DNA of 64,000 nt from an uncultured Rhodospirillales bacterium (GTDB lineage Bacteria > Pseudomonadota > Alphaproteobacteria > JAWKYA01). Shown in pieces: positions 37,595-60,945 of the stretch. The stretch covers positions 3,503-67,502 of the forward strand of contig CAYNIC010000011.1 of assembly GCA_964397465.1 (NCBI GenBank), in the 5' to 3' direction. The first letter of the stretch is position 1. Each line of letters begins with the position of its first letter. Under the pieces are notes generated by a model. The model ran no database searches, was not told where the DNA came from, and worked only from the letters and a program-made list of their open reading frames with translations. Position numbers and translations under genes: made by a program.

Positions 37595-40087
37595 TTAAAA
37601 TTCGTAGCCGTTGATATCGAGCCGAAACTGAGCCGTAGTTGTGGACGACCGCCAATACACCTGCTGGGTTGTGTTCAAGATCAGACGAAACTGTCCGGCG
37701 ATCCGCCATCCATCGAAGATGGTACCGCTGGCATTCCCGGCCGCGGTGTAACAGCCGCCGGTGCCGGTGGCGTCGGCGGCAATGGCGATGGTGTCGTTGG
37801 CCGAGGCGGCGGATTGGCCGATGGTTCCGGAGACCACACCCGCGGCCGGCGGCACCGCATTGGCGATGGATTGCACCGTCCAACTGGTGATGCCGGCGAT
37901 GCCGGTAAAGATGGTTTGTGGTGCCTGAATGACGCTGCGGTCGAACTGATAAAACTTCACCAGATTTGATGCGCCGTCATTGCGCGCCGACCCGACCAAG
38001 GCCTTGTAAGTATATCCGCCGGGAAGCATCGGTGTCGTTCCCGACAAGGATATCAATCCCGCCACGGTGGAGGTCGCGGCATTGTAAATGACCCACAACC
38101 GGTACCAGGTGGCGGCGGCTTCAACGCCGCTGTCCAACCCGTTGACGCCGCTGGCGGCGATGTCGACGGTAACCGCAATGTTGCTCAGCATCATCGCGTC
38201 ACCGGCGGCGTCCTTCACCATCAGTTCATCCGCGGCGATGTCGATCTTATTGGCCGGCGACGCGGCATTGACTCCGGCTTTCAGCCGTCGCGCTTGCCCG
38301 GCAAGGGTGAGGGAATGGGTAAAACTTAAAACGCCATTACCATTGGTGCGGAGAACTTGACCGGCCAGGCCGTCGCTGCCGGGAAAAACAAGACCCTTCA
38401 GTTTGATCTTGCCGCTGCCGTTGGGTGAGAGGTCGATGTCGCCGTTCCCGGTACTGACGATTTTCTTGCCATTGACGATCAAATCCCCGCCCAGTTTTGG
38501 CGCCGGATCATCTTCGATCTTCATCAATATCCCGGGGATGCCTTGCGCGCCGGTGTCGCCTTTCATCGCCAGGACATCCCAATAGATCCCGTTGGGCGGC
38601 GTGTGATTGATATGGGCGATTTTGCAGCGATAACTGCTGCCGGCAAGGGTTGCCACATCGCCGATGACATAGGACGTTACCGCCGACCATGCGCCTTTCC
38701 AGGCCAAGGCGCCGTCATTGCCGGCAAGGCCGTCCACGGCGACCAAGGCCCATTGCGGCGTGGTTGCCGTAAGACCGATGCGGCTTGGCGTGATGCCTTG
38801 ATGATCGACGGCGGCGATATAGGTTGCGCCGCTGGCATCATGGCGGACGACATCGCCGCGTTTGTAGGATGTCGTCATTTCCCACGCGGCCATCCAAGCG
38901 AATCCAAGCTCGGTCAAGGGCAAGGGTACAACCGTAACCGACTTGCCGGTCCACACCATCCATCGTGCGGCATAGGAGGGCGACGTCAGATCAACGGGGG
39001 TGCCGCCGCCGCTGGCGTCGGTTGTTCCCGCCTGGGCGATGTCGCCGGCGGCGAAACCGCTGCCGCCCGCCAGTTGGGGATTGGCCCCGGCTTTGTTGTA
39101 AACGTATCCGTGGCTGTGGGTTGGAAGTTCCGCCAAGGTTAGACTGTGTTTCTCTTCGCCGAAACTTGCGCCCAGTTGGCGAAGAGTAAGACCGGCACCT
39201 TGTCCTGCACCGACGATGGCACGGCCGCGCAAGTCGGGAAGTTTGACTGTGTCGTGCAAAAGCCACGTCTCGCTTCCCTGGTTAGGCGGCAAGGTGCGGA
39301 GGATGGAAAACAGGTTTTCATAGGCGCCATGGGCATGATCCGCTCCGCTTGAGGCGTCGCCCAAGGTTTTGCCATCGAGCTCCAGCCATCCGTCGGGCGC
39401 CATGCCGCCAAGGAGGCCGCCGAGAAACGGATGAATGGTGCCGACCGGTATCGCCGCCGCGACCTGACTGTTAAGGGCGTTCAAGCTGGCGGTGACACCG
39501 TTTAATGCCGCGGTACTGGCGGCGCCCAAGGTGGATCGTCCCGCTGCGGGATTTCCTGCCGCCAATAATGTCTCGCCAAATCCCGACACCGCCAGGTTTC
39601 CCGGCGGGGTGGCGATAATGGCCGTGGGCCGCCCCTCCGCATCAAAGCCCAGCGCTCGCCCGGCGCGAAGCGGCGCCAAGGGCAAGGTCATATCGACGTC
39701 GCTGTCGAACGGCGCCTTGGCAAGGGCATCGCCGGTCAAAGCCTGAACCTGCTGCACGCCCAAGGTCAAACGATCCAGTTCTTCATTCACCACTGCGGCG
39801 CGAAAGGATTCGCCATCGATGAAATCGGTGGTGCGGCTGATCGGCATGGCGCGGCTGATGGTCACCCGGCATCCGGCGGGCGGCGGAATAAAAAATACCA
39901 CATCACCGCCGCTGCTATTTCCGATGCCGGTAACCGTATAGGTGTTGATCGGCGCCCATTGGTCGTTCAACGCGACCTTTAAATCATCGCCGTTCAGAAT
40001 GGGGAAGTCGTAAGCAAAGGCCGTGACGGCGCCGGTGCCCCAATGCTGAAGGCGTGGCCGGACATCGCCGATGAGAAGATCGGACAT
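37595..40087 (-). CDS. Tail fibre protein with phage tail-collar domain
   Basis: 830 aa. Collar motif ...APDGWLELDGKTL...VKLPDLRGRAIVGAG...LTLAELPTHSHG. Confidence 0.7.
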   Translation of the reverse strand: MSDLLIGDVRPRLQHWGTGAVTAFAYDFPILNGDDLKVALNDQWAPINTYTVTGIGNSSGGDVVFFIPPPAGCRVTISRAMPISRTTDFIDGESFRAAVVNEELDRLTLGVQQVQALTGDALAKAPFDSDVDMTLPLAPLRAGRALGFDAEGRPTAIIATPPGNLAVSGFGETLLAAGNPAAGRSTLGAASTAALNGVTASLNALNSQVAAAIPVGTIHPFLGGLLGGMAPDGWLELDGKTLGDASSGADHAHGAYENLFSILRTLPPNQGSETWLLHDTVKLPDLRGRAIVGAGQGAGLTLRQLGASFGEEKHSLTLAELPTHSHGYVYNKAGANPQLAGGSGFAAGDIAQAGTTDASGGGTPVDLTSPSYAARWMVWTGKSVTVVPLPLTELGFAWMAAWEMTTSYKRGDVVRHDASGATYIAAVDHQGITPSRIGLTATTPQWALVAVDGLAGNDGALAWKGAWSAVTSYVIGDVATLAGSSYRCKIAHINHTPPNGIYWDVLAMKGDTGAQGIPGILMKIEDDPAPKLGGDLIVNGKKIVSTGNGDIDLSPNGSGKIKLKGLVFPGSDGLAGQVLRTNGNGVLSFTHSLTLAGQARRLKAGVNAASPANKIDIAADELMVKDAAGDAMMLSNIAVTVDIAASGVNGLDSGVEAAATWYRLWVIYNAATSTVAGLISLSGTTPMLPGGYTYKALVGSARNDGASNLVKFYQFDRSVIQAPQTIFTGIAGITSWTVQSIANAVPPAAGVVSGTIGQSAASANDTIAIAADATGTGGCYTAAGNASGTIFDGWRIAGQFRLILNTTQQVYWRSSTTTAQFRLDINGYEF

Positions 40088-40111
40088 GAGAGTGTCTCCT
40101 TATAGAGGCGC

Positions 40112-40603
40112 TTAACGGATCAGGGATATTTGCTGAATGGCGTAGTGGGTTCCGGTGTCCAGCAGGCTGCGGCCGATGGCGTTCGCCGGCGACAAGCGAC
40201 GCTCGCGGTCCAAAATCTTGGCGCGCTGCTGCGTTTGGGCGATTGCGGCGCCGTTGTCGGCGAGGTCAGCATCCCGTTTGGCCAAGGCTTGTTCCGTCGC
40301 GTCGGCATGACGCGATTGCATCGCCTGTTGCAAGGCCGCCGTACTGCCGCCGTCATCATTGATGCCGCGCGCCGCCGCACTGGTGCGGGCGCCGCCCAAC
40401 TCGCGGCGTAACCCAAGGCGCCGGGTCGCTTGATCGGTCTCGAAGTTGTCGGCGATCAGCGAGCGTCGCCGCTGCAAGGACGCCAGTTGCTGCTGGGCAG
40501 CGAGGCTTTGCGCTTTCGCTTCGGCCCGGCGGGCGGGAAGATTCAGCGCCGTTTGGGCTGCTGTGGCGGCAAGCTGTGGAAGTAACGGGGTTGACGCGGC
40601 CAT
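40112..40603 (-). CDS. Ala/Gln-rich coiled-coil virion protein (hypothetical)
   Basis: 163 aa of low-complexity helical sequence. Start/stop junction shared with the upstream gene. Confidence 0.45.
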   Translation of the reverse strand: MAASTPLLPQLAATAAQTALNLPARRAEAKAQSLAAQQQLASLQRRRSLIADNFETDQATRRLGLRRELGGARTSAAARGINDDGGSTAALQQAMQSRHADATEQALAKRDADLADNGAAIAQTQQRAKILDRERRLSPANAIGRSLLDTGTHYAIQQISLIR

Positions 40604-42501
40604 CAGTCATTCACCTTAAGTTCGCAGTTGACGGAAAGAAGCGTGAAGGAAAAAGGATTGCTTTGGGTAATGCGCCACAGCGGTTCCAGCGCGCCGCGAT
40701 GCCAGCCCAAGGCCCGCACCGTGACATCGCCGGTATAGGCCGCCGGCGGTGAGTCAAGATTGACGCCGCCGATCGTCTGCAACGGAACCAATCTTGGTCC
40801 GCGGCCCACATCAACCATCAAGGCGGGGGTGTCTTTGATGCGGAAGGTGGCGCGGATCAGCCGCAAGGGCTCACCCTGAAGTTCTCCGTTGTCCGACGGC
40901 GGCAGGGGCTCGATGCTGTGGGTAAAGGCAAGACCTACTTCGATGCGGGTGGCGGTGGCGGCCAGAGAAATCACCCCGCCTTTGACCTTATAAAGGCCGA
41001 GCGGCCGGCCATCGGCGATGACCGTCACCCATTTGTCGTTGAGATGGGACAGCCCGCCCCAAATCGATTGGGCTTGTTCGGTTTCGCCCAACAAGGCGGC
41101 ATCACTGTTAAGTTGCGGATCAAATTTTTCGATCCGAAAATCGGCAAAACGTTTGGCCAAGGCATAGACGTCGCCGCCCACCACGGCGACGGCATGAAAC
41201 TCGCCGTCGGTTTCCAACCGCGTCCAGGCGGTGACATTCTCCGAGCGATAAAGGGTAAGGGCGCCGAGGCCGCCGTCGCTCATCACCACGTAAAGCACCC
41301 GCGACTTATCGGCGTAATCCATGTCGATCGGATCCGTCACCAGATGCGGAGCCAGCACCGAGAGGTCGCGGGCTTGGTAAGCCGCCTCGGCATCGGTATA
41401 AAGAAGTTCGCGAATTTGCCGGCCGCTGCGCGCGGCAAACAGGGTTGCGCCTTCAACCGCGCGGGGTGGTACGGTGCGATCAGGGTGTGAGCCGACGGTG
41501 GTTTGCCGTTTCGCCTGGACCGTGGCGGGAGATAACGGCTCGCCGGTGATCTGCCACTCGCCGCCGGTGGTCAAAACAAACAGCGTCAGACCGGAATGCA
41601 TCCCGCGAATGGCGTCGACCTGTTCCGACAACAATCCGAACTCGATCGCATCGTCATCCTCGCCGATGCCAAGATCAAAGTTGAACAGATCCGAAGTCCG
41701 CGACATCCAGATCCGGTTGGGGATCGACCGGGCGCCGCCGAACACCAACCGGTCTTGGGCGAAGGCGACGCTGGCGGGCCAGCCGCGATAGGGTGAAAAC
41801 GCCTGCTCGGACCAATCGGTGATGGCGGTGGTGTTGGGCAAGGACAGGGCCAGCGTCACCTTCACCGCCGTTGCCGAGGTGACCTCGATGATGGCGACAT
41901 CCTGGTTGGGCAGGCGTAAGTATGCGCCCAGCTGCGCCGGATCAAACACCGGTGCCGATGCGGTCAAGGTAATGGTGCCAGAGGTGCCGCTGGGCGTTAA
42001 GGTCACGGTATCTCCGGCGAAACGATAGAACGGATGATAGCGGCGTTTGGTTGTCGTATTGGCGACAAAGGTTAGATCCGCCAAAACCCAGGTTTGCGGC
42101 CCTAGACGGGTGAGGGTCTTTGGCGCAACATCGGGATGACAAATAAACAACGTGTCCGCACTTTGCGCCCAAGTCAGACGCTTGATCTGATCCGCCGTCC
42201 ACGGCGTGGCCACGGTGGCGATGACCGCATCATGGTGCAGGATGGTGATCTGCTGATGGGTGACGACCAACAGATAAGTCTGCTCGGCATTAAAGGCGAA
42301 ACCGATCAGACGGCCGGAGCCCGCGGCGATGGCGATATGACGCAGGCCAGGCCGGCGCGTCACGCCTCCGGTCGGCTGCACCAAAATATTGCGCAGTTTT
42401 TTTGCGGCGTTGCTGTACGACGCAAGATCGCCCCGGCCGTAAAGATCGCTCGATACTTCGCCGGCGGTGAAATTATTTTTGAGAACCCGCATGCGTCCCA
42501 T
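40603..42501 (-). CDS. Large tail/nozzle protein (T7 gp12 tubular-B position)
   Basis: ATG at 42501 after GGAGGAGG; 632 aa. Assigned by size and synteny only. Confidence 0.5.
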   Translation of the reverse strand: MGRMRVLKNNFTAGEVSSDLYGRGDLASYSNAAKKLRNILVQPTGGVTRRPGLRHIAIAAGSGRLIGFAFNAEQTYLLVVTHQQITILHHDAVIATVATPWTADQIKRLTWAQSADTLFICHPDVAPKTLTRLGPQTWVLADLTFVANTTTKRRYHPFYRFAGDTVTLTPSGTSGTITLTASAPVFDPAQLGAYLRLPNQDVAIIEVTSATAVKVTLALSLPNTTAITDWSEQAFSPYRGWPASVAFAQDRLVFGGARSIPNRIWMSRTSDLFNFDLGIGEDDDAIEFGLLSEQVDAIRGMHSGLTLFVLTTGGEWQITGEPLSPATVQAKRQTTVGSHPDRTVPPRAVEGATLFAARSGRQIRELLYTDAEAAYQARDLSVLAPHLVTDPIDMDYADKSRVLYVVMSDGGLGALTLYRSENVTAWTRLETDGEFHAVAVVGGDVYALAKRFADFRIEKFDPQLNSDAALLGETEQAQSIWGGLSHLNDKWVTVIADGRPLGLYKVKGGVISLAATATRIEVGLAFTHSIEPLPPSDNGELQGEPLRLIRATFRIKDTPALMVDVGRGPRLVPLQTIGGVNLDSPPAAYTGDVTVRALGWHRGALEPLWRITQSNPFSFTLLSVNCELKVND

Positions 42502-42502
42502 C

Positions 42503-43069
42503 TCAGCCTCCTCCAGTCCAGCCGGTAAGATCAAATCCGCCGGCGGTTTCTTCCTGGGCGTCGATCAGACGGGCGCGGCGAAATTCTTCCTCGGCGGCAC
42601 GGGCCAAGGCTTCGGCCCGGGATGAATTCTCGGTCAAAGGAATGCAGAACTCGGCCGCCAGGCGCGCGATCAGCACATGATCAAAGAACGGCGGAAAATC
42701 CGCTTCGCCGGGGCGAAAAATATAGGTCAGGATCACTTCATCGGCGTGGGCGTGAAGCCGCCGCTCGGCGATGCGGTAGGTAAGCCCGCGCCCGCGACGG
42801 CCGTTACCGGCGGAAAGGGCGCGAAGATAATCGCCGGGCAATTGAAACGCATAGGCATAGTCGGCGGGGGGCGAGGCCGCCAAGGGCGCAAGCCGCCGTT
42901 GCGCCGTGGCGAAATTCCACGGATGGGCGGAGAGCAGGGCGTCCCGCGTCGACGGATAAAGCAGGCTGGCCACCTCGGCGGCAGCGGAGCCTTCGTCAAA
43001 TCCTAAAATAGGCGCGGCGCCGATTTTCACCAGCGCTCGGGCACAAAGTTGAATGGCGCTCAGAGCCAT
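42503..43069 (-). CDS. Adaptor / tail tubular-A-position protein
   Basis: ATG at 43069; 188 aa. N-terminus MALSAIQLCARALVKIGAAPI...HPWNFA resembles podovirus adaptor-type proteins. Synteny supports the call. Confidence 0.45.
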   Translation of the reverse strand: MALSAIQLCARALVKIGAAPILGFDEGSAAAEVASLLYPSTRDALLSAHPWNFATAQRRLAPLAASPPADYAYAFQLPGDYLRALSAGNGRRGRGLTYRIAERRLHAHADEVILTYIFRPGEADFPPFFDHVLIARLAAEFCIPLTENSSRAEALARAAEEEFRRARLIDAQEETAGGFDLTGWTGGG

Positions 43070-43152
43070 GGCTCGTTGCCTTTCCCATAAAAAAGCTCCG
43101 CGGCGATGAACCATCGCCGGCGGAGCCGATCACAACAGAGAAAATAGATTTA

Positions 43153-43410
43153 TTAGTCGGTGTTCACGCTGCCGACGGCGGTCATGTCGGCGACATCGAC
43201 CGTGCCGTTCTGGCTGGAAGCGATCAGAAGAATGCCGGCGCCGCCGTTGACATTGGCGAGAATCATATCGCCTTTGCGCAGCATATCTACGGCGGGATTA
43301 AAATAGCCGTTGGTATCGACGATGTCGGCGGTATCGGTCGAGGCATAATGCCAAAGGGTAAAGCCGTTGGCATAGGCCAGCACCGAAAGGTTTCTGGCAA
43401 GATAGGCCAT
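43153..43410 (-). CDS. Small capsid-associated hypothetical protein
   Basis: 85 aa, directly downstream of the capsid gene. Confidence 0.45.
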   Translation of the reverse strand: MAYLARNLSVLAYANGFTLWHYASTDTADIVDTNGYFNPAVDMLRKGDMILANVNGGAGILLIASSQNGTVDVADMTAVGSVNTD

Positions 43411-43448
43411 GAAGATCTCCTTTATCTCTTTAAGCTAAGGGTGAAATT

Positions 43449-44273
43449 TTACGCTTCGCTGCACGGCAGGGTGACAAGACCGGTGCCATCGACCAGCACC
43501 GCGCCCAAGGACAGCGAGCAGCTGACGAACCACGCGGCCCGATCGTTGTGATAGGCGATGTCGGTGTTGACTTCCGATCCCACCGCGAGGGCAAGGGCGG
43601 TCTTGTGCCACCAATGGCACAGGCGGTGACCATTGCCGTCGAGGCCAAGGCCGGAATGGGGCATCCACAAGGTTCCCAGCCAGCGCTTGGCCTGGGTGCC
43701 GCGCCAGGGCAGATCGTCGCTGCCGACATAATCGGCATTGGCGAATTCCTGGATCATCAAGAGATCGGACCATTGTTTCCATCCCACCACGGCGTAACGA
43801 TCTCCGTCATCGGGCACATCGTTGCCGCCCAGGATGCCGAAGGCCTCCAGCACCTTTTGTTTGGTGAGACCGCCGCTAACCGTCGGAGTCAGATTGGCCG
43901 AGGTGTTCATCTGCGCCAAAATCAGCTCGTCGGTTTTGCGGCCCAAGGCATAGGCGCCGGCATTGGCCACCACCGCCCGCTCTTCGTTCTCGGTCTTAAG
44001 TTCGTCCAGGGCGTCCACCCATTCGCCGGCATAGTAATCCGACAGAAAACATTCGATCGGCGCGTGATCGATGTTCATCACCGGCACCTTGCCGTGTCGC
44101 GCTTTGGTCGAAGCGCTGCCCTTGCCGACTTTTTGAAACACGGTGGAGGCGCCTTTAACGCTGCCCTTGGCGCGAACGCAAGGGCGGAGCTTGGCGCCCG
44201 TACGCTGATAGGCTTCGTGAACTTCCTTTTCGAACTGCTTGATGAAAGCAGCATCAATGGAGGGTTTATTCAT
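43449..44273 (-). CDS. Major capsid protein (putative)
   Basis: 274 aa, positioned after the scaffold-like gene. N-terminal FIKQFEKEVHEAYQ... pattern resembles small podovirus coat proteins. Confidence 0.65.
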   Translation of the reverse strand: MNKPSIDAAFIKQFEKEVHEAYQRTGAKLRPCVRAKGSVKGASTVFQKVGKGSASTKARHGKVPVMNIDHAPIECFLSDYYAGEWVDALDELKTENEERAVVANAGAYALGRKTDELILAQMNTSANLTPTVSGGLTKQKVLEAFGILGGNDVPDDGDRYAVVGWKQWSDLLMIQEFANADYVGSDDLPWRGTQAKRWLGTLWMPHSGLGLDGNGHRLCHWWHKTALALAVGSEVNTDIAYHNDRAAWFVSCSLSLGAVLVDGTGLVTLPCSEA

Positions 44274-44394
44274 GGTGATCCTTTCAGAAAAAATAAACGG
44301 TTGAGTCCGGCCACGGGTTATCCGCGCAGGGGCGGGCTTGCAGCCGGATGAAGGAAAAAGACGGGCCGCCGCAACGGTTGTCCGTAATTAAGAC

Positions 44395-45132
44395 TTATGA
44401 ACTGGGGTAAAGACGGCGGAAGCCCTCGCTGACCTCGGCCACAAAGGCGGGGTCTTTGTGCTTCCAATAGCGGGGATCGCGCATCATCTTGGTCAGATCC
44501 TCTTCGGTTAAACTTGCAACCGCGGTGCCGCCACCGCCAAGCCGCGGCGGCGATCCGCTTTGCATCATGGCGTGAAGCGCCAGAACGCCGTCGCTGGTCG
44601 AGGCCAAGGCGTCGAACACGTCGCGCGGCAGGTGGGCCGTGCCCCAGGCGTTGAGTTGCCGGGCGATTTCGCGCCATGCCGTATCGCCGCCGAAATGGGC
44701 GATCAGTCGCTCGCGCTGTTTTTGCGCCTCGAATTCCGACGCCAGATCGGTGATCGCCGGCAGCATGCGTTCGCCGGCGAGATCGTAAACCAGCTGAGCT
44801 TGGCGCGGCGTGAAGTGGGCCGCGTGCAGGCGACCGTTGACATCCGGATCAATGTCCAGAAAATCGGTGCTAAGATTGATCTCGTAAGCATCGGGTGTGT
44901 CGGGGATACCGAGCGCCCGGCGGAAGGCTGCGGTCTCCGTCTCGTCGGCATCATCTCGCGGCACCCGCACCATGGTCGATAGTTTTCGCTCCAGCTCCAA
45001 ATAGGATCGCGCCAGTTTCGCCACATCGGGCGCGCCGGTTTGCGGGTCCAAAAATTTCTGGGGAATTTGCACCGTGTCGGATGAAGGGGCGGCGGGCGTA
45101 TCCGATGGTGTGGTCAGTAAACTCTCGGTCAT
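44395..45132 (-). CDS. Scaffolding-like protein
   Basis: ORF trimmed to the ATG at 45132 after AAGGA, 5 nt below the portal stop. 246 aa, helical and acidic. Sits between the portal and capsid genes. Confidence 0.5.
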   Translation of the reverse strand: MTESLLTTPSDTPAAPSSDTVQIPQKFLDPQTGAPDVAKLARSYLELERKLSTMVRVPRDDADETETAAFRRALGIPDTPDAYEINLSTDFLDIDPDVNGRLHAAHFTPRQAQLVYDLAGERMLPAITDLASEFEAQKQRERLIAHFGGDTAWREIARQLNAWGTAHLPRDVFDALASTSDGVLALHAMMQSGSPPRLGGGGTAVASLTEEDLTKMMRDPRYWKHKDPAFVAEVSEGFRRLYPSS

Positions 45133-45136
45133 GGCA

Positions 45137-46669
45137 TTATCCTTTTGTCGACGAAAGGGTTTGCGCCTCAACAGAGGCAGGTAAAATTTCAGAAGAAATC
45201 GCTGCTGGAACATCGGGACGTAACAGGCTCGCCGGCAGGTCCAGCATCTTGGCGGCCCATCTGGCGGCGGCCGGCGCATCCAAGGTCGCGGCGGCGTCCG
45301 GCCCCAACTGCTTGGCGATGTCCAGCCACGACAAGGCGCCTTGCGCCTCCAACTGGGCTTGCCGCCGCGCCAAGGGCGATCGGTATTGCAAGGTGATGGT
45401 GCGACCATCCAAGGTCAGGTTCGGCAATTCGCCGCGCCGGGATAAAATCGCCAAGGCCCGCGCCACCAACGGCGTCAAAAGTTCGGCCTGCAGCCGGCCG
45501 TAGGTTGCGCCCAATAACCGCGCGGTCTCCGCCGCCCGGTGCAGAACTTCGGTTGCGGTCATGCCCGGCGTCGCCACACTTGCCAGGCGGTCGGTCAGCA
45601 GACTGGAGCGGATCGCTTGCCGTAGGGTGGCAAGAGTCAAATCCGAGACATTGAAATTTCCCGGCACCTGCAAGGGCGTCAGGCCCGATGAGCCGACCGC
45701 CTTGGGAATGATGGTGCCCGGCACCAACCTCACCGTCGCCGGATTTAAAACACCGTCGTCATCGGCCTGCCAAATGCCGGTGACGGCGATGGCGGCGTTT
45801 TTCAGCGTCAACTCAACCACCTTGTTGGCGGTTTTGATATCGGGCAATGCCTTCATCACCGGCGAGCGGCCATAGGCCTCGCCCGGCGCTTTCATCCAGC
45901 GAAACGACAAAAAGGGCGATTGATCCAATCGCGCCTTGGCCAAAAGATGCGGGCCGTTGAATTTCTCCGCACCGCCTTCCAACACCGCGACGTAATCGTA
46001 ACCGTTGCCGGTCTCGCGGGGGACCACCGCTTCGATCACCGTGTAAAGACGATCGCTGTCGGTTGCGGCGGAAGCGGGAATCTCCGCTGCGGGAAAGCGG
46101 CTGTGCAGTTGCAGCCGGCTCAACCGATTGCGACGATAGGCGATATCCAACCTTCCCTCGGCGCCTTCCTCCAACACCACATCCCACAACGGCACGGCGG
46201 CAAAGCGAAAGGCGCTGGGTTGTCCCGGGGCGGTTTCTTCAAAGGACAAACAAGCCGTGCCCGACACCACCAAATCCAGAAAGCATTGATGAATCTCCAC
46301 CGCAAAATTCGAGCGATCGAAATGCTGCTGCAGAATCTCGGCGGCGCGATCGAGTTTCGGCGCCAGGTCGCCGTGCAGGTGTTCGGGAATTTCCCGGCCG
46401 GGGGCAAAGCCGAACCATCTGGCCCAGGGCGGCGTCAGTTCAGCCAGCAAACTGGCCGCCAATTGATCCACCGCATCGGGGGCGGTGCCGTCGAACAACC
46501 GCTCGCGGCTGGCGGCGGATAGACTGGAGGGCCCCGCTCCGGCAAAGGGCGTCTCATCCCGCGACGGCAAACTGTAGGCATAGCAGTCGCGCCACACCGA
46601 CTCCCAGGCGCTGCGCTGCATCTTGGCGCGGTGAAACCGGGCCATCACGCTTTCCGGCGTCATGATCAC
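45137..46669 (-). CDS. Portal (head-to-tail connector) protein
   Basis: 510 aa. N-terminal RFHRAKMQRSAWESVWRDCYAYSLP resembles the T7-type connector family. Position is upstream of the scaffold and capsid genes. Confidence 0.7.
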   Translation of the reverse strand: MIMTPESVMARFHRAKMQRSAWESVWRDCYAYSLPSRDETPFAGAGPSSLSAASRERLFDGTAPDAVDQLAASLLAELTPPWARWFGFAPGREIPEHLHGDLAPKLDRAAEILQQHFDRSNFAVEIHQCFLDLVVSGTACLSFEETAPGQPSAFRFAAVPLWDVVLEEGAEGRLDIAYRRNRLSRLQLHSRFPAAEIPASAATDSDRLYTVIEAVVPRETGNGYDYVAVLEGGAEKFNGPHLLAKARLDQSPFLSFRWMKAPGEAYGRSPVMKALPDIKTANKVVELTLKNAAIAVTGIWQADDDGVLNPATVRLVPGTIIPKAVGSSGLTPLQVPGNFNVSDLTLATLRQAIRSSLLTDRLASVATPGMTATEVLHRAAETARLLGATYGRLQAELLTPLVARALAILSRRGELPNLTLDGRTITLQYRSPLARRQAQLEAQGALSWLDIAKQLGPDAAATLDAPAAARWAAKMLDLPASLLRPDVPAAISSEILPASVEAQTLSSTKG

Positions 46670-46884
46670 TCTCCCAATAAAATTTTGCGGGCGGGGATAA
46701 GGCGCGCCGATTTGCCGGCGGTAATGGCAGGCTGCTCCAGCACGCCGGTCAGTCCGGTTTTGACGGTGGTGGCAAGGCCGCGGCGAATCCGGCGGTGCGG
46801 GTGAAGATCTTCCTTCACCGCGGCGGATAGGGGCGGCGGTGCCGGAACCGGCGGTGGGGTGGGGGCGATAAAGCGGCTGGCCAT
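46666..46884 (-). CDS. Hypothetical Pro-rich 72-aa protein
   Basis: ATG at 46884 after GGGAGA. ATGA overlap with the portal start. Confidence 0.35.
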   Translation of the reverse strand: MASRFIAPTPPPVPAPPPLSAAVKEDLHPHRRIRRGLATTVKTGLTGVLEQPAITAGKSARLIPARKILLGE

Positions 46885-46993
46885 CAAGGATCTCCCTGAA
46901 GCAGGTGGAACGAACGGGACAAAGGGTGGAAAAAACAAAACCCGCCGCGGTTTCCCGGGGCGGGTGAGAAGAGGCGGAGTCATGGCCTCATGT

Positions 46994-47008
46994 GTTCCTA
47001 TATAGTTC
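46994..47008. promoter_or_regulatory. Alphaproteobacterial-type SOS (LexA) box GTTC-N7-GTTC
   Basis: GTTC ctatata GTTC read directly. Overlaps the -10 of the promoter listed next. Confidence 0.65.
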
Positions 47009-47027
47009 TCTTTTCAGTTCCTGTCAA
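46999..47027 (-). promoter_or_regulatory. Near-consensus sigma70-type promoter for the portal-to-holin genes
   Basis: The minus strand reads TTGACA (47027-47022), 17 nt, TATATA (47004-46999). Confidence 0.6.
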
Positions 47028-47109
47028 CGGTATTTTTTCTTAAAAAATGAAAAAGAAGCTGGCCGCCTGTGGGCAAGGTTTCCTTCCGGCTGAATCCCCA
47101 GCGTCTATT

Positions 47110-47562
47110 TCAAGAACGGCTTACCCGACCCGCGGGATTTAAAAGACGTCCCGCGTTCCTGTCCGTCAGGGATAAAAATAACCGCCATGGGGTCCAAATA
47201 AATCGGCGCCGCAGGTGCAAAATATTTTTTACCACGGCAACGCAGGTCATCGGCCGCAGCAGGTTAAGACAAGATCGATGGCGCCGCGGGGTGCGGGTCA
47301 TCGGCATCATCACGGGAATCGGCACCGCACCCTTTGCGGTATAGAATCGAATCATCTCCGCAACGGAGTAGGGAGGAAGGAGTTTGATCATCAGACGGCC
47401 GCACAGGGGATCCACCATGATCCATCCGCTGGCGATTCGATAAAGGATAAAGCAATGGCGGAAGCCTCGTTTCAACAGATAAAACCATGGAAATTCCAGC
47501 TCGCCGCGAAATACCACGATCGCCGTAACCCCGCGGCGCGGACGATCAGAGTCGGCGGTCAT
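47110..47562 (-). CDS. Hypothetical 150-aa protein
   Basis: The 244-aa track ORF is trimmed to the ATG at 47562, which overlaps the upstream stop (ATGA). No family recognised. Confidence 0.45.
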   Translation of the reverse strand: MTADSDRPRRGVTAIVVFRGELEFPWFYLLKRGFRHCFILYRIASGWIMVDPLCGRLMIKLLPPYSVAEMIRFYTAKGAVPIPVMMPMTRTPRRHRSCLNLLRPMTCVAVVKNILHLRRRFIWTPWRLFLSLTDRNAGRLLNPAGRVSRS

Positions 47563-47924
47563 CGGACGATTCCCTTGGCCCGCAGCGGCGGCGTCAAACG
47601 CTCTAACGCTTCGCGCCACAGCTTGGCGAAGTTCGCCTCTTCGCCCCGGGCATAGGGCGACGGAGCGCGGCCCATGCGGCCGTAGTGCATCAGGATTTTG
47701 ACATGAGCCCGGCGCAGGCGCCGTCGCTCGACCAGCCGCACCAGCTCGCGCACCACGTCGTCGGGCTCGCAGGGTTTGGGGGTGGATTTTCCCGCCTCGA
47801 ACCGGGCGCCGTCGGCGCGGGCGGTCAGGCAGGCGACGCACCAAAACCAGCAGGCTAAACTCGTCGGGAAAGGCTCCCCAATCGTTGTTCCCTTGCCGGT
47901 GGTGATAAGCTTCAACTGGCCCAT
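47559..47924 (-). CDS. Hypothetical 121-aa protein, first gene of the cluster (possible regulator)
   Basis: ATG at 47924 after AAGGGAG. Arg-rich helical C-terminal half. Confidence 0.45.
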   Translation of the reverse strand: MGQLKLITTGKGTTIGEPFPTSLACWFWCVACLTARADGARFEAGKSTPKPCEPDDVVRELVRLVERRRLRRAHVKILMHYGRMGRAPSPYARGEEANFAKLWREALERLTPPLRAKGIVR

Positions 47925-47969
47925 GGCTTTGCTCCCTTGAAGGGCTTTTTTCTCTCGCGGTAAACGAGT

Positions 47970-47984
47970 GTTCTATTATTGTTC
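47970..47984. promoter_or_regulatory. Second SOS (LexA) box GTTC-N7-GTTC in the divergent control region
   Basis: GTTC tattatt GTTC read directly. Confidence 0.6.
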
Positions 47985-48084
47985 GCTATTAGAGGGAGAG
48001 TCTATATGCACAAATACCCATGTCAAGCCTGAATCAGAATTTGATCCTAGTGACATTTTTCACCTGAATTGTGAAGGTGTTCCC

Positions 48085-48717
48085 ATGTTGAGACATGCGG
48101 ATATATGGCGGGGGATTGACCGTTTGGCTGCGACACATAATTTGTCGCCCTCGGGCTTGGCTCGAAAGTCAGGATTGGATCCCACCACCTTTAACAAATC
48201 AAAACGGGTTGCCCGGGATGGCAAGCCGCGTTGGCCGACGACGGAAAGCCTGGCGAAGATTCTGTCGGCCACCGGCGCCGGCATGAACGAATTCGTCTCA
48301 TTGATGAGCGAGACTCCCGGCACCTCGGTAACCCAGCGGATCCCGGTCATCGGCTATACCCAAGCGGGTCAGGCCGGTTACTTCGACGACGCCGGTTATC
48401 CCGCGGGCAAGGGCTGGGACGAGGTGGAGTTCCCCGATGTCGGCGATCCTCACGTTTATGCGCTGGAGATCAACGGCGACAGCATGATGCCGGTTTATCG
48501 CGACGGCGACGTGGTTGTGGTCTCGCCCCAGGCGCAGATCCGCCGCAACGACCGGGTGGTGCTGAAGACCGTCGAGGGCGAGGTGATGGCCAAGGTGCTC
48601 AGCCGCCGGTCGGCCAAGAAGATCGATCTGCATTCGCTCAACACCGATTTCCCCGATCGCAGCCTGGACAGCGACGACGTGCTGTGGATCGCGCGGATTA
48701 TCTGGGCCAGCCAATAG
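48085..48717 (+). CDS. HTH + S24 peptidase (CI/LexA-like self-cleaving) repressor
   Basis: ORF trimmed to the ATG at 48085 after GAAGGTG. N-terminal HTH (LSPSGLARKSGLDPTTFNKSKR), an Ala-Gly linker, and GDSMMP...K catalytic dyad. Confidence 0.8.
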   Translation: MLRHADIWRGIDRLAATHNLSPSGLARKSGLDPTTFNKSKRVARDGKPRWPTTESLAKILSATGAGMNEFVSLMSETPGTSVTQRIPVIGYTQAGQAGYFDDAGYPAGKGWDEVEFPDVGDPHVYALEINGDSMMPVYRDGDVVVVSPQAQIRRNDRVVLKTVEGEVMAKVLSRRSAKKIDLHSLNTDFPDRSLDSDDVLWIARIIWASQ

Positions 48718-48731
48718 TCTTAGCGCCGATT

Positions 48732-48874
48732 GATTCCGCGATTCCTGTCGCAAGATTCCATTCCTTAAATGCCGGAGTCCGACTCTTCTCCTAACTTGGG
48801 TATGAAGAGTCGAGATTGCTGTCGATTAGGAATCCTTGAATCGCCCCCGAATCTTCAATGAATCTTTCTGAATC
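48732..48874. repeat. Dense GANTC array: 11 sites in 143 bp; GATTC x3 left, GAATC x5 right, inverted repeat in the centre
   Basis: Sites counted by hand at 48732, 48740, 48754, 48775, 48781, 48807, 48830, 48838, 48849, 48860 and 48870. 9-bp inverted repeat CGACTCTTC (48780-48788) / GAAGAGTCG (48804-48812). Confidence 0.85.
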
Positions 48875-48952
48875 CCATTTCGGAGGCGACTAGCTGGCGC
48901 CGGTTGCGTAGCCGGCCTAGGATCGGTCGCCACCTTTAAAGAAAGATCCGCC

Positions 48953-49813
48953 ATGGCGAAGAGTCTAAGTAACGAGGATAATTGTCAGACCTTCGTCGAT
49001 GGCCGGTGGATCGCGGGCAATCCGCCGCTGATGCATGCTATGACCCATGCGGTGTGGTTGGGATCGGTGGTGTTCGACGGCGCGCGGGCCTTCGACGGCG
49101 TGGCGCCCGATCTTGATCTTCATTGCCATCGGGTCGTCAATTCGGCATCGGTGTTGGGCTTGGCGCCGACCCTGACCGCGACGGCGATCGAAGATCTGGC
49201 GCGGGACGGCATCAAAAGATTTGCGCCGAACACCCCGCTCTATATCCGGCCGATGTTCTTTGCCGAGGACGGGATGCTGGCGCCCGATCCCGCCACCACC
49301 AAATTCGCCCTGGTGATGTGGGAGGATCCCTTGCCGGCGCCGACCGGATTTTCCGCAATTGTCACACCGATGCGGCGCCCGCCGCCCGAAGCGGCGCCTT
49401 CGGAAGCCAAAGCGTCTTGTCATTATCCCAATCTGGGTCGCGCGGTGCGCTGGGCAAAGGAACGCGGCTTTGACAACGGCGTGGTATTGGATCCCGCCGG
49501 CAAGATCGCCGAATTCGCTTCATCGAATATTTTCTTCGTGCAGGACGGGGTGGTGGTGACGCCGGCGGCCAACGGCACTTTCCTGAATGGCGTCACGCGG
49601 CGCCGCGTGTTATCGCTGTTGCGCGCTGATGGCGTGAAGGTTGAGGAACGGGTAGTTGACCCGTCAGAGCTTGATCGCGCGTCCGAAGTTTTCTCCACCG
49701 GCAACTATGCCAAGGTCATGCCGGTGACGCGGATGAACGATCGCAGCCTGCAGCCGGGACCGCTGTTCCGCCGCGCCCGCGAGCTCTATTGGGGTTATGC
49801 ACATGGGAAGTAA
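48953..49813 (+). CDS. ilvE: Class IV aminotransferase (branched-chain amino acid aminotransferase-like)
   Basis: 286 aa. Fold-type IV pattern including the EAKASCHYPNLGRAVRWAKERGFDNGVVLD region. Confidence 0.7.
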   Translation: MAKSLSNEDNCQTFVDGRWIAGNPPLMHAMTHAVWLGSVVFDGARAFDGVAPDLDLHCHRVVNSASVLGLAPTLTATAIEDLARDGIKRFAPNTPLYIRPMFFAEDGMLAPDPATTKFALVMWEDPLPAPTGFSAIVTPMRRPPPEAAPSEAKASCHYPNLGRAVRWAKERGFDNGVVLDPAGKIAEFASSNIFFVQDGVVVTPAANGTFLNGVTRRRVLSLLRADGVKVEERVVDPSELDRASEVFSTGNYAKVMPVTRMNDRSLQPGPLFRRARELYWGYAHGK

Positions 49814-57386: not shown

Positions 57387-57642
57387 GCCCACCTCGTCAG
57401 GGCACCGGCTTAATTCAATAAAACCAGCACCCAAAGTTCATTCATATCTCTTAAAACATGCGCTTTGTAAGGGAAAAAAGCAAACTAACAGTATTAGATA
57501 AAATTAGAGTAAATAAAACGGTTCAGCAAGGGTGATCTATTTGAATAATCAGGAAATTCTTGTCTAACGGACGTTTAAAGGCGAAGCGGCTTTGTTGTGG
57601 AAACGAAACATTGTTGCGCGCTAAATTTTTCACGATGAGGGG

Positions 57643-57688
57643 AATAAACAAACGGGCACCCTTAAAGGATGCCCGTTTGTTGTTTAGC
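57643..57688. terminator. Bidirectional Rho-independent terminator
   Basis: 12-bp perfect stem AACAAACGGGCA / TGCCCGTTTGTT with U-rich tracts on both strands. Lies just below the orphan copy of the nucleotidase 3' end. Confidence 0.65.
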
Positions 57689-57702
57689 CGATCATCGAAG
57701 GT

Positions 57703-57737
57703 CTAGTCGGCTCTTGTGATCCGCCCTTCGACCTTGG
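57703..57737. repeat. Perfect 35-bp direct repeat, orphan copy
   Basis: CTAGTCGGCTCTTGTGATCCGCCCTTCGACCTTGG is identical to 59308-59342. Confidence 0.9.
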
Positions 57738-57739
57738 TC

Positions 57740-58366
57740 TTACTCTCCGCAGTCACGATAGGTGGATTCGCGGCACTTTTCGGCCATGGCCTTGGCTTCA
57801 CTGACTTGCTGAGGCGTTAAGTCTGACTCCGTAGCGGTGAGAATTTTCTGTGCCAGATTGGCAATATCAGAATTGGTTGCCGTTTCGCTGGCTATCGAGG
57901 TCCACATATAGGTGCGAACATCATCGCGAGGAACGCCCTTTGCGGCAGAATACAACAAGCCAAGTTGTATTTGTCCCAAGGCATATCCTTGCACCGCCGC
58001 CAGCTTAAACCATTTTCGTGCTTCTTGATAATTCGGCACGACGCCGTCACCTTGGCGATAAATAACGCCGATCGTAACCTGCACGGTAGGATGATGGGCT
58101 TGTTTGTTGGCGAGACTGAACCACTTGGCGGCTGCAGCATGATCCCGCGTCACACCTTCGCCTCGATAATACATCGTGCCCAAGGTAATTGAAGCTTGAT
58201 CCATGCCACCTTCAGCCAAGGGCTTGAGAATGGAAAGTGCCGTGGCATAATCTTTGCGGTCGTAAGCGGCTTTGCCGTCTTGCAAAGGGCCAGTCGCTGC
58301 AGGGGCGGCAAAAATGAATCCCCCCAGAATTATCACGGTCAACCGATAGGCCATTCTCCTTTTCAT
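57740..58366 (-). CDS. Secreted Sel1-repeat protein
   Basis: Signal peptide, 5 Sel1-type repeats, and a C-terminal KCRESTYRDCGE. Confidence 0.75.
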   Translation of the reverse strand: MKRRMAYRLTVIILGGFIFAAPAATGPLQDGKAAYDRKDYATALSILKPLAEGGMDQASITLGTMYYRGEGVTRDHAAAAKWFSLANKQAHHPTVQVTIGVIYRQGDGVVPNYQEARKWFKLAAVQGYALGQIQLGLLYSAAKGVPRDDVRTYMWTSIASETATNSDIANLAQKILTATESDLTPQQVSEAKAMAEKCRESTYRDCGE

Positions 58367-58370
58367 GAGC

Positions 58371-59096
58371 TCATTCCCCGCAGTCTTGATAGTCGGGATG
58401 GCGGCACTTCAGCAGCATGATGTTAGCTTCAGCAAGTTGCGACGGCGAAAGCCGCTGCTTTAAAGCTGGGTAATTTTTCGCTGCATTAGAATCTTTATCG
58501 GCGCTAAGACTGAACCACATATAGGCACGGGCGAGATTGGATTTAACACCATAGCCATCACGATAGATCACGCCGAGATTATTTTGTGCCTGGGCGTCGC
58601 TCTGCTTTGCGGACAACAAAAACCATTTCCGCGCCTCTACATAGTTTTTGGGCGTGCCTTGGCCCAGCCAATGCATCTGGGCGACCTGGAATTGAGCGTC
58701 GGGATTACCCCATAAGGCGGCCAGGCGAAACCACTTCAAAGCTTCCCGATAATCTTGGGGAACACCGGTCCCGTTTTTGTATAGCACCCCCAGATTGCTC
58801 TGCGCCATTACGTTTCCTGTTTCGGCGGCCAGGGTGTACCATCGGATGGCTTCGTTATAATCTTGTGGCACACCTTCGCCATTGCTGTAGGCACGGCCAA
58901 GATTATACTGCGCCATGGCATCACTTGTTTGCGCCAAGGTTCGCCAAATGGAGACAGCGGTTTGGAAATCACCCCGTTGAGAAGCAGCATAGGCCTCTTC
59001 CATCGGTGTCGCTGCTAAGCCGGGACGTGCGAGAAAAACAAGCGCGATTAAATATACAAAAGTAATCAACATCCGCCGCTGAAGACGTTTTGTCAT
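58371..59096 (-). CDS. Secreted Sel1-repeat protein (paralogue of the downstream gene)
   Basis: ORF trimmed to the ATG at 59096 (MTKRLQRRMLITFVYLIALVFLARPGLA). Sel1 repeats and a C-terminal KCRHPDYQDCGE. Confidence 0.75.
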   Translation of the reverse strand: MTKRLQRRMLITFVYLIALVFLARPGLAATPMEEAYAASQRGDFQTAVSIWRTLAQTSDAMAQYNLGRAYSNGEGVPQDYNEAIRWYTLAAETGNVMAQSNLGVLYKNGTGVPQDYREALKWFRLAALWGNPDAQFQVAQMHWLGQGTPKNYVEARKWFLLSAKQSDAQAQNNLGVIYRDGYGVKSNLARAYMWFSLSADKDSNAAKNYPALKQRLSPSQLAEANIMLLKCRHPDYQDCGE

Positions 59097-59254
59097 GTCG
59101 ATGTCGGGTGTAGCGGAGCGAAAAGCTGTTCTCATCCTGACCCCTTGACAATGCACTTGCCATTAACAAACGTATATCGAGTAAAATATTATAGTATGCT
59201 ACTATAAATTATAAGATCAAGAAAAGCGTTTTTAAGAGGTGATAACTTCGCAGT

Positions 59255-59285
59255 AACAAAAAGGCACCGTGGTTGCGGTGCCCTT
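59255..59285 (-). terminator. Rho-independent terminator just below the nucleotidase stop codon
   Basis: The minus strand reads GGCACCG-caacca-CGGTGCC followed by TTTTTGTT. Confidence 0.55.
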
Positions 59286-59307
59286 TAGTCATGCCATCAG
59301 TATAAGC

Positions 59308-59342
59308 CTAGTCGGCTCTTGTGATCCGCCCTTCGACCTTGG
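59308..59342. repeat. Perfect 35-bp direct repeat, functional copy (last 10 codons plus stop of the nucleotidase gene)
   Basis: Encodes ...KVEGRITRAD*. Confidence 0.9.
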
Positions 59343-60945
59343 GCTCGACCGCGCCGCCTTGCTGCGATTTGATGTAATCGCGCAGCACGTCTTCAAGATT
59401 GGCGCCGCCGTCGCGAACGTCGGTCGCCTTGGTCTTGAACATGGCGTAACCGTCACCACCAGTGCGAACGAAATCATTGGTGACAATGCGATAGCTGGCT
59501 TTGGTGTCGAGCGGTTTGTAGCTGCCGTCGGCTTGGCGGATCTCCACCTTGGTGATGCGCTTGCCGGCGGGCTGTTTGGCCGACCAGGTATAGCGGGCGC
59601 CGGCAACCTGGGCGAAACGTCCGGTGCCTTCGTTCTTGGCATCCTCAGCCTTGCTGACGCCGTTTTCCAACGCGGCCCACAACTCGGCACCCGTTAGTTT
59701 GAAAGTCGAGACAGTATTGGAGAACGGAAGAACCTCCAGCACGTTGCCAAAAGTAATCTGACCTTTGGGAATGCTGGTGCGGATGCCGCCGCCGTTTTGG
59801 ATGGCGACTTGCGTGCCTTCGTTCTTGGTCTTCCACAGCAAACTGTCGGCGATCAAATTGCCGAGATTGCATTCGACGTGACGGCAAACGGCGCGATCAC
59901 CGTTCAGCTCGACCTTGGCTTCGCCGACGGCCTGGGTGCGCAGCTCGGCCAAGGGCTTCGCCATCTCGTTGACCATGGCCTGGACGGCGGCATCTTGAGG
60001 AACGGATGAATCCAGCAAGATCGGGTTGCCTTCCCATTTCGTCAGCACGCCGTTGTTGTCGAAGGTCGCATCCAAGTGACCCAGGAAGATGCTGGCGTAA
60101 TAAGCCTGCACGATCAGCGATGGGGCGCCCGATGGTTGCTTGACCACGATCGGATATTTGCCTTCCGCCGCCGCATCGGTATTCGACAATAGCGTGTGGC
60201 TGTGGCCGCCGACGAAAATGTCGACGCCGTCGACCGTCTTCGCCAATTTTTCGTCCTCGGCTTCGCCGATATGGGACAGCACGATGATCTTGTTGATCTT
60301 GGCCGCCTTCATTTTATTGACCTCGGCTTGCAAGGTCTGCTTCAGCGGCAAGAACTTCACCTTACCCGGGCTGGCCAGGGTTGGCGTATCGGGCGTGACC
60401 AAGCCGATGACACCAATGGATTGGCCGCCGACCTCGATCACCATGCTGGGCGCAAACCGCCGTTGCAGGGAGGGTTCTTGATCGACATTGACGTTGGCGG
60501 TCAGGAGCGGCGGCTGCAACCCGTCAAAAAACTTGGCAATTTCAGGCACACCGTCGTCAAACTCGTGGTTGCCGAAGATGATGGCGTCATAGCCCATACG
60601 ATTGACGAACGGCTTGAGGGCGTCGCCTTTGGCCTTGGTATAGAAGAGCGATCCTTGGAAGCGATCGCCGGCATCCAGCACCAAGACGTTGGGGGCGCTG
60701 GCGCGAAGTTCCTGAATCTTGGAATAGATCCGCGCATAACCGCCAAAGCATTTTTTGTCGGTCGCGTCCTTCGGTGTGCAGTAGCTGCCCGAGCGCGTGA
60801 CTTGGTCCACCCGCGCGTGAACGTCATTGGTGTGCAGAATACGAAGTGTATAGTCCTGGGCGCCGGCACTCATAGAGATGCTGAAGGCGCCGATAGATAA
60901 AGCCAAAGTCGCCGGTGCGACCGCAGCGCGTAATAAAGTAAACAT
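59308..60945 (-). CDS. Periplasmic 5'-nucleotidase / UDP-sugar hydrolase-like metallophosphoesterase
   Basis: Signal peptide. NDVHAR, DAGDRFQGS, GNHEFD and VGGHSH motifs, plus a C-terminal 5'-nucleotidase domain. Confidence 0.85.
   Translation of the reverse strand: MFTLLRAAVAPATLALSIGAFSISMSAGAQDYTLRILHTNDVHARVDQVTRSGSYCTPKDATDKKCFGGYARIYSKIQELRASAPNVLVLDAGDRFQGSLFYTKAKGDALKPFVNRMGYDAIIFGNHEFDDGVPEIAKFFDGLQPPLLTANVNVDQEPSLQRRFAPSMVIEVGGQSIGVIGLVTPDTPTLASPGKVKFLPLKQTLQAEVNKMKAAKINKIIVLSHIGEAEDEKLAKTVDGVDIFVGGHSHTLLSNTDAAAEGKYPIVVKQPSGAPSLIVQAYYASIFLGHLDATFDNNGVLTKWEGNPILLDSSVPQDAAVQAMVNEMAKPLAELRTQAVGEAKVELNGDRAVCRHVECNLGNLIADSLLWKTKNEGTQVAIQNGGGIRTSIPKGQITFGNVLEVLPFSNTVSTFKLTGAELWAALENGVSKAEDAKNEGTGRFAQVAGARYTWSAKQPAGKRITKVEIRQADGSYKPLDTKASYRIVTNDFVRTGGDGYAMFKTKATDVRDGGANLEDVLRDYIKSQQGGAVEPKVEGRITRAD

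Follow-up and report, generated by a model that had tools for sequence, protein, structure and literature searches.

Within a 64,000-nt stretch of an uncultured Rhodospirillales genome (assembly GCA_964397465.1, contig CAYNIC010000011.1; hereafter the window, meaning the whole stretch analysed), a 1,570-bp block carrying two Sel1-repeat genes, Sel1A and Sel1B, lies at the 3′ end of an intact 5′-nucleotidase gene, between two perfect copies of a 35-mer of which one forms the end of the nucleotidase itself. We favour, with a little better than even confidence, the reading that this block (the islet) is an old, strain-variable islet without a recombinase, flanked by repeats of the attachment-site (att) type and similar to a cis-mobilizable element (CIME), that entered by a Campbell-type crossover and whose repeat was later homogenised or renewed by a separate re-integration.

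The 35-mer CTAGTCGGCTCTTGTGATCCGCCCTTCGACCTTGG occurs exactly twice in the window, as a perfect direct repeat (Table 1), with no further match at three or fewer mismatches and 0 expected in 100 shuffles, and no other direct repeat of comparable quality was detected there. The original prediction, made from the letters of the window alone, had described this duplication and had assigned one copy to the last 10 codons and stop of the nucleotidase; both statements held. We refer to the gene-proximal copy as live and to the non-genic, downstream copy as dead. The dead copy is followed after about 21 nt by a strong hairpin (57647-57681), and all genes around the islet lie on the minus strand. A second assembly, from a near-identical strain (JGI contig Ga0172278_1319; 6 mismatches in 14 kb), displayed the identical structure with both 35-mers. 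An assembly artefact was discarded on the agreement of the two assemblies (6 of 14,000 bases apart) and of five or more lineages.

The nucleotidase falls in a 90%-identity cluster with five other members, and comparison with these relatives (loci are labelled L and numbered) identified sites without the islet. Cluster-member contigs L002-L011 and, through a pattern scan, L092 carried an empty site, giving nine or more contigs from about five lineages with nucleotidase genes of 86-89% DNA identity to that of the window. Here the nucleotidase stop (TAA) is followed by approximately 20 nt, a terminator hairpin, an AT-rich spacer, an open reading frame (ORF) of 90-94 aa and a helicase gene, with no Sel1 genes, and nucleotidase and helicase lie about 1.6 kb further apart in the window than in L092 and the other empty loci. 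The terminator and spacer of the empty sites align with window positions 57600-57702 (control z 12-27), so that 57738-59307 is an insertion/deletion difference exactly at the repeat borders. In every empty-site relative the terminator just past the nucleotidase stop aligned with the hairpin at 57647-57681, which is therefore the gene's ancestral terminator, as had been proposed. The empty-site relatives and the orthology of this terminator likewise bear out the claim of an insertion at the 3′ end that left the gene intact. All relatives have an intergenic stretch of similar AT-richness to that at 57435-57640 (37-40% GC), which lies outside the repeats and upstream of a 105-aa ORF and the helicase; this DNA is therefore ancestral and no part of the islet. 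A degenerate scan of metagenome contigs for the 35-mer returned matches at two empty sites only; viral contigs contained no match to it and no relatives of the nucleotidase. The possibility of a dispersed repeat was set aside given the two window copies, the two empty-site relatives of the metagenome scan and the lack of any viral match.

Other relatives are occupied. At least four other lineages carry this islet with matching junctions (Sel1B stop, 1-2 nt, CC(A)AAG...): it was found in L098-L103, L104 and L096/L097, with a decayed remnant in L105-L107. The occupied order runs nucleotidase, terminator/promoter region, first Sel1 gene, Sel1B, 1-2 nt, repeat copy, ancestral terminator, small ORF and helicase. 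L098-L103 and L104 carry a first gene of the window type (254 aa; 86-92% amino acid identity), and L096/L097 carry another first Sel1 gene of 384 aa together with another islet terminator. In L105 (1037-1700) and L106 (2931-3600) an islet of the L096 type is in decay, with internal deletions in both Sel1 genes. Orthologous dead copies, diverged or decayed, are present in L096, L100, L104 and L106: the two repeat copies of L096 are identical at 30 of 35 positions, the dead copy of L100 and L098 has lost 6 nt and gained one T, and that of L106 has lost 7 nt and has the same additional T. The nucleotidase of L096 (1-1628) was called as two ORFs (3-1355 and 1392-1628) with an inflated dN (non-synonymous divergence), and may be a frameshifted pseudogene or a sequencing error.

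Synonymous divergence (dS) from the window was 0.30-0.60 for Sel1A and 1.0-1.3 (0.66-1.3 at its widest) for Sel1B, compared to 0.5-0.7 for the nucleotidase and 0.8-1.1 for the helicase. Because the islet dS is similar to that of the nucleotidase and helicase, the islet would have stayed in the group for about as long as the lineages have been separate. These comparisons show an insertion that is real but old, predating the split of several related lineages. The original prediction of a recent, site-specific insertion regenerating the gene end thus stood in part: insertion and regeneration of the gene end are supported, the latter by a pattern in L100 described below, and the recent date is unsupported given these dS values and the diverged copies that relatives share. 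Empty sites, which it had proposed to look for in relatives, were found in five or more lineages. The result expected if it were wrong, namely diverged flanks in all relatives with no empty site or a dispersed 35-mer, was seen in part only: copies in some relatives have diverged, further relatives are empty, and the 35-mer is no dispersed repeat.

Neighbour-joining trees were built from the 3′ half of the nucleotidase, the 5′ part of the helicase and the downstream flank, and in these trees occupied lineages were mixed with empty ones. On the right-hand side of the site L105/L106 were nearest to the window (79-84% DNA identity in downstream flank and helicase; helicase 93% at the amino acid level), and to the left they were no nearer than other lineages (nucleotidase 86%). 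One sample (ERZ27257534) holds both an empty lineage, L003, and an occupied one, L096. The interspersion of occupied and empty lineages, and flanks that give different nearest relatives, argue for repeated loss and/or recombination between lineages, and the locus is thus a presence/absence polymorphism of long standing that homologous recombination between lineages has reshuffled. The direct repeats have probably also allowed precise loss more than once, and there may have been independent gains. In the test of cassette against flank discordance for horizontal spread, dS varied within the islet itself (0.30 versus 1.0) no less than it did from islet to flanks.

Two observations bear on how the islet came to its place. 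Firstly, the islet spacer and terminator that follow the nucleotidase stop (first ~60 nt) have weak but significant homology to the ancestral ones, with z of 5.5-7.9 in L100 (0-1 of 500 shuffles as good), z of 2-5 and up to 5.2 in the window, and no similarity in the L096-type islet. Because the islet spacer and terminator resemble the ancestral ones, the repeated segment would once have been about 100 bp long and have comprised gene end, spacer and terminator, and the sharp edge of the repeat at the stop codon would derive partly from faster divergence of the non-coding part. Secondly, the L100 dead copy matches the nucleotidase end of L005, an empty sister lineage, at 24 of 24 positions, whereas the L100 live copy differs from that gene end at 5 of 24, including two amino acid changes (I for V and K for R). 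As far as sequence comparison can indicate, this pattern fits the remnant expected when incoming DNA supplies a new gene end and displaces that of the host, the classical result of one crossover joining the chromosome to a circle that bears a gene-end copy. An element-borne gene end is therefore visible in L100; the two window copies are identical and hence uninformative.

Pfam searches identified no recombinase, integrase or transposase in the islet or within 10 kb on either side, and none recognisable in the 64-kb window, in agreement with what had been noted originally. There were no inverted repeats at the islet termini (57738 and 59307), and no tRNA gene or Rfam family in or near the islet or in the window. 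Islet DNA had no match in plasmids or phages, and an origin from either was rejected. No copy of the islet was found at any other site (Sel1B homologues of at least 70% identity were all at this locus), 20+ related contigs, 80 genome loci and viral contigs revealed no occupant of the site with an integrase, and no circular junction or second integration site was seen.

The weak spacer and terminator homology, the L100 pattern and the lack of inverted repeats and recombinase together point to a Campbell-type integration at an att-like site made up of the last ~35 nt of the gene. A circular DNA carrying the nucleotidase 3′ end (the last ~35 nt and, at first, spacer and terminator as well) would have met the chromosomal gene, and one reciprocal crossover between the circle and the chromosomal gene end would have integrated it. 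The gene-proximal copy would then complete the nucleotidase and read into the islet terminator, with the distal, dead copy left ahead of the gene's original terminator. Loss, decay and reshuffling of the locus by homologous recombination between lineages would have followed. With no recombinase of its own, the islet looks like a cis-mobilizable element, having att sites and no integrase.

The perfection of the repeat in the window requires an explanation of its own. Both window copies share window-specific bases (GGG...TAG), and the two L106 copies, identical over their interior 21 nt, have L106-specific bases there (ACC CGC), in an islet that is old and decayed. Copy pairs of the other lineages have 4-10 differences or indels, and the downstream intergenic flank of the window is 58-64% identical to that of most lineages, so that several differences would be expected had the window's dead copy drifted since the split. 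Copies that are identical within a genome yet differ between genomes, as in the window and L106, are a signature of homogenisation (concerted evolution), and the 35/35 identity in the window is most likely secondary, the two copies having undergone local gene conversion. Alternatively, the islet of the window lineage could stem from a separate and later integration that copied 35 bp of the host through ends-in gap repair or a staggered cut; the absence from the window's dead copy of the indels seen in its nearest relative would then be accounted for. The data do not separate gene conversion from later integration, and perfect identity of the repeat is no clock for the insertion.

Several points weigh against an old, Campbell-type islet with a homogenised repeat. 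No recombinase, circular junction or second integration site was seen, and the proposed crossover may have been made by an integrase acting in trans or by host homologous recombination. Cassette type (254-aa or 384-aa first gene) and dead-copy state sort apart, so the history is a mosaic for which a single-origin tree cannot be drawn, and the trees were built on 640-800-nt segments of short metagenome contigs. Gene conversion over 35 bp that are non-homologous on one side is at the lower limit of RecA-type recombination, and conversion could hardly have mended indels of the L100 or L106 type, had the window's dead copy borne them. Identity falls sharply from 35/35 to ~55% at the stop codon, a pattern that a fresh duplication of 35 bp from the host would also give. 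Finally, the markers within the 35-mer are a few third-position sites that could be homoplasic.

A recent, integrase-mediated, site-specific insertion, with the repeats as fresh attL and attR and the islet either mobilised in trans or left over from a larger element, we regard as unlikely. A perfect repeat with window-specific bases in both copies, relatives with empty sites and an islet whose GC content at third codon positions (GC3) is 20 points under that of host genes would all be in keeping with it. In addition, the nearest relative by helicase and downstream flank (L105/L106) has another, decayed cassette and an indel-bearing dead copy, so the window copy could be a separate, later arrival. 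However, no sampled islet is near that of the window (Sel1A dS at least 0.30, Sel1B dS at least 1.0), so nothing dates the event as recent. A site-specific crossover, moreover, makes hybrids of attP and attB, and these would be identical only if the incoming DNA already had the lineage's exact 35-mer, from which the gene ends of relatives differ at 5-9 positions. Neither an integrase nor a circle nor another copy was found.

A further account holds that only the islet at 57738-59307 is mobile and that each entry copies the host's last 35 bp, through a 35-nt staggered cut or gap repair in a short homology arm, with host recombination as the only machinery; we judge it a weaker candidate still. 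Known transposase target duplications span 2-15 bp, so one of 35 bp is far beyond their range, and terminal inverted repeats are lacking. The homology of the islet spacer and terminator to the ancestral ones implies that the repeated segment exceeded 35 bp, a 35-bp arm is marginal for RecA, and the live and dead copies of L100, 5/24 different with the dead copy equal to the sister's gene end, fit an element-borne end. Set against these are copies that are identical and bear variants particular to the lineage, both in the window and, for the interior 21 nt, in L106; the lack of a recombinase; and an independent case, L069, in which a 156-bp, 98% identical gene-end duplication surrounds a 539-bp AT-rich insert. 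The three mismatches of L069, however, all fall at third codon positions, as if one copy had come from another functional gene.

L069 (Pseudooceanicola nitratireducens CGMCC 1.7292, NZ_FNZG01000003, 11363-12213) was the only other duplicated gene end in a survey of 90 loci (1.75 Mb) around nucleotidase homologues. Its repeat extends from -146 to +9 relative to the stop, and the third-position mismatches suggest that the second copy derives from another functional nucleotidase gene. With 43% GC, the insert includes a terminator of its own and, on the strand opposite the gene, an ORF for 82 aa rich in Lys and Ser (11556-11804, minus strand). The architecture and the gene are the same as in the window, the order is different and there is again no recombinase; no close empty-site relative was available for comparison. 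A doubtful extension of these observations would be that recombinase-free, homology-armed cassettes, each with a short copy of the nucleotidase 3′ end, enter by host recombination (ends-in or Campbell), regenerate the gene, supply a terminator and exit via the two copies, so that cassettes would have docked repeatedly at this gene end in two or more orders of Alphaproteobacteria (a Rhodospirillales/Azospirillales-like group and that of Pseudooceanicola). Two cases are too few for a gene-end hot spot. A 44-bp hairpin-containing repeat (GGCCGGGGCGCTGCCCCGGACCCCGAAGTATTTT...) also occurs at two intergenic spots 7.7 kb apart in L024 (7988-8031 and 15682-15725), an Ascidiaceihabitans metagenome-assembled genome, and looks like a dispersed repeat of the repetitive extragenic palindromic (REP) type, unrelated to the islet.

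That the Sel1 genes were never mobile, being ancestral neighbours lost by deletion from the empty sites, with the 35-mer a chance or structural repeat or an assembly artefact, is very improbable: the spread of occupied lineages over the host trees makes several losses likely whatever the origin, and the L105/L106 islet is decaying in place, but every occupied lineage has a non-coding copy of the gene's last 35 nt precisely between Sel1B and the ancestral terminator, which needs a duplication or insertion, no chance match is expected, the structure recurs in two assemblies and at least five further lineages, islet GC3 is low in all lineages, and no conserved RNA structure or Rfam family accounts for the 35-mer. 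An RNA hairpin across the 35-mer (AAGGUC/GACCUU in the window; AAAGUU/AACUUU in L006) was considered and dropped, the predicted folds being inconsistent across lineages.

Among known systems, the closest kind is a CIME-like islet with flanking att sites and no integrase, located at a protein gene's 3′ end, with a gene-end replacement typical of integrative elements. A CIME is a cis-mobilizable element flanked by att sites and lacking integration and transfer genes (PMC5704250). The islet has the corresponding structure: 35-bp direct repeats at the nucleotidase 3′ end with empty sites in relatives, two Sel1 ORFs as its only genes, and no Pfam match to a recombinase within 10 kb on either side. 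It shares with the CIMEs of the ICESt1/ICESt3 family of Streptococcus thermophilus a short cargo block, attL/attR-type repeats, a position at a protein-gene 3′ end and the lack of integrase and transfer genes; ICESt1 itself is inserted in the 3′ end of fda with short direct repeats. Unlike those CIMEs, the islet has no remnants of integration or transfer genes and no known integrase-bearing relative at its site, and it belongs to another phylum and targets another gene. The likeness to CIMEs is one of structure, and derivation by decay of an integrative and conjugative or integrative and mobilizable element, like mobilisation by accretion, would be an analogy drawn from that structure.

In E. 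coli, phage 21 and e14 integrate in icd, and tRNA-targeting islands carry a replacement 3′ end. Such gene-3′-end integrative elements keep the gene intact through incoming last codons and a terminator, with a dead copy at the far junction, and the L100 pattern matches theirs. They encode their own tyrosine integrase beside the att site and span tens of kb, whereas the islet measures 1.57 kb, is coding to within 2 nt of the repeat and has no integrase. In complex class 1 integrons with ISCR1, capture of circles by short homology has been proposed to explain the duplicated 3′-conserved segment. That Campbell-type capture resembles the islet in that a direct duplication of a homologous segment flanks the genes and no site-specific recombinase is needed; the islet differs in having no ISCR or IS91-type element or other circle-forming agent, and homology of just 35-100 bp. 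Three further classes were considered and rejected. A transposon or insertion sequence was excluded by the 35-bp length of the repeat and the lack of a transposase and of inverted repeats at 57738 and 59307, an integron gene cassette by the lack of an imperfect palindrome after Sel1B and of an IntI-like gene and by the islet's own promoter, and an integrative element with its own tyrosine or serine recombinase by the lack of a recombinase gene inside the islet or next to the att site.

The islet was described from the outset as lower in GC content and as carrying two paralogous secreted Sel1 genes with a shared cysteine-containing tail, and this description held. Both proteins belong to the Sel1-like repeat family (PF08238), with scores above the Pfam gathering cut-off of 30.7 bits; they share 32% identity, a signal-peptide-like N-terminus and a C-terminal C-x7-CGE. 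The Sel1A start (ATG at 59135) is kept in L100, and amino acid identity of Sel1A to its counterparts in L100 and L104 was 86-92%. Away from the locus its homologues were generic Sel1 proteins only, with 52% identity at best. The three close homologues of Sel1B (71-79%) were all at this locus in relatives, and outside it the best reached 42%. A tail of the form ...A-x2-C-x7-C was present in 34 of the 120 best Sel1A homologues and is common in the family. Sel1A and Sel1B are ordinary secreted Sel1-repeat proteins: they resemble secreted Sel1-like-repeat (SLR) proteins with a Cys-x7-Cys tail in their Pfam match and shared tail motif, and differ in having no close homologues outside the locus. The GC content of the Sel1 genes was 52% (GC3 53%) compared to 58% (GC3 74%) for the nucleotidase and 65% (GC3 73%) for the helicase, and the islet GC3 was about 20 points under that of its neighbours in all lineages. 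A third, native Sel1-repeat gene (15954-16691, minus strand) encodes a 245-aa protein with a signal peptide and a Pro/Ala-rich tail beside COX15 and is also present in the relative L095. An intragenomic donor was rejected, this native protein being just ~30% identical to the islet proteins.

The AT-rich promoter region and the terminator that the islet was said to place after the nucleotidase stop were also recovered, the former with a sigma-70-like site and the latter as a hairpin that was flagged as inverted repeat I8 in the window scan and is identical in L100. A non-coding block at 59160-59215 containing the palindrome TTATAGTA-GCA-TACTATAA (59189-59207) is ~95% conserved between the window and L100-L102, and the non-coding sequence beside it is variable between them. 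This block is a candidate operator or other protein-binding site. Feature coordinates are collected in Table 1, together with the junctions predicted for an empty site and for an excised circle.

Table 1. Features of the islet and its site in the 64-kb window.
Feature	Position	Strand	Evidence or description
5′-nucleotidase gene, 545 aa, intact	59308..60945	-	ORF; Pfam Metallophos and 5_nucleotid_C; 94-97% amino acid identity with relatives
Live (gene-proximal) 35-bp repeat copy	59308..59342	-	Final 2 nt (CC), 10 codons (KVEGRITRAD) and TAG of the nucleotidase
Islet between the repeat copies, 1,570 bp	57738..59307	-	Missing in empty-site relatives
Islet-borne intrinsic terminator just past the nucleotidase stop	59256..59289	-	Stem AAAGGGCACCG/CGGUGCCUUU and U-run; -25 kcal/mol, z -4.3
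AT-rich promoter/operator region of the Sel1 operon (predicted)	59136..59255	-	Promoter scan
Sigma-70-like site TTAAAA-16-TATAAT	59235..59208	-	Promoter scan
Sel1A, 254 aa, secreted-type (predicted), four Sel1 repeats	58371..59135	-	Pfam Sel1 E 2e-44, 148.8 bits
Sel1B, 204-208 aa, secreted-type (predicted)	57740..58366	-	Pfam Sel1 E 2e-17, 63.5 bits
Dead (downstream) 35-bp repeat copy	57703..57737	-	Non-genic; 2 nt past the Sel1B stop
Ancestral nucleotidase terminator, now ending the Sel1 operon	57647..57681	-	-34 kcal/mol, z -7.8, U-run
Predicted empty-site junction			...AAGAGCCGACTAG joined to ACCTTCGATGATCGG
Predicted excised-circle junction			...GGAGAGTAAGA-35-mer-GCTTATACTG...; circle or tandem form ...GACTGCGGAGAGTAAGA joined to CCAAGGTCGAAGGGCGGATCACAAGAGCCGACTAG joined to GCTTATACTGATGG

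Elsewhere in the window, a phage-like structural block extends over 31400-48900 (e.g., 45137-46669, 44395-45408, 37595-40087 and 32386-33750, minus strand), beside a class IV aminotransferase gene (48953-49813). It encodes a T7-type head-tail connector (PF12236, E 5e-122), a T7 capsid assembly protein, an 830-aa protein with a CBM_5_12 module and a RelA/SpoT-domain protein, along with large ORFs that have no Pfam match, and no integrase of at least 280 aa was seen. L002 and L008 carry an S24 repressor and a Head-tail_con gene at the corresponding position. Neither the source genome nor its genus was represented in the species-representative genome collection, the best match being 57%, so that the collection supplied no empty site; L069 came to light in the scan of it.

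As it stands, this is an ordinary integrase-less islet. The locus nevertheless provides a clean natural example of how a small accessory block can be accommodated within the end of a housekeeping-type gene without harm: the islet brings a replacement gene end and terminator, and the old terminator passes to the islet's operon. Related contigs show empty, occupied, variant and decayed states of one site, and a perfect flanking repeat is an unreliable sign of recent insertion. If the recombinase-free reading were true, it would describe an inexpensive way in which uncultured Alphaproteobacteria of freshwater and wastewater gain and lose genes at conserved gene ends.

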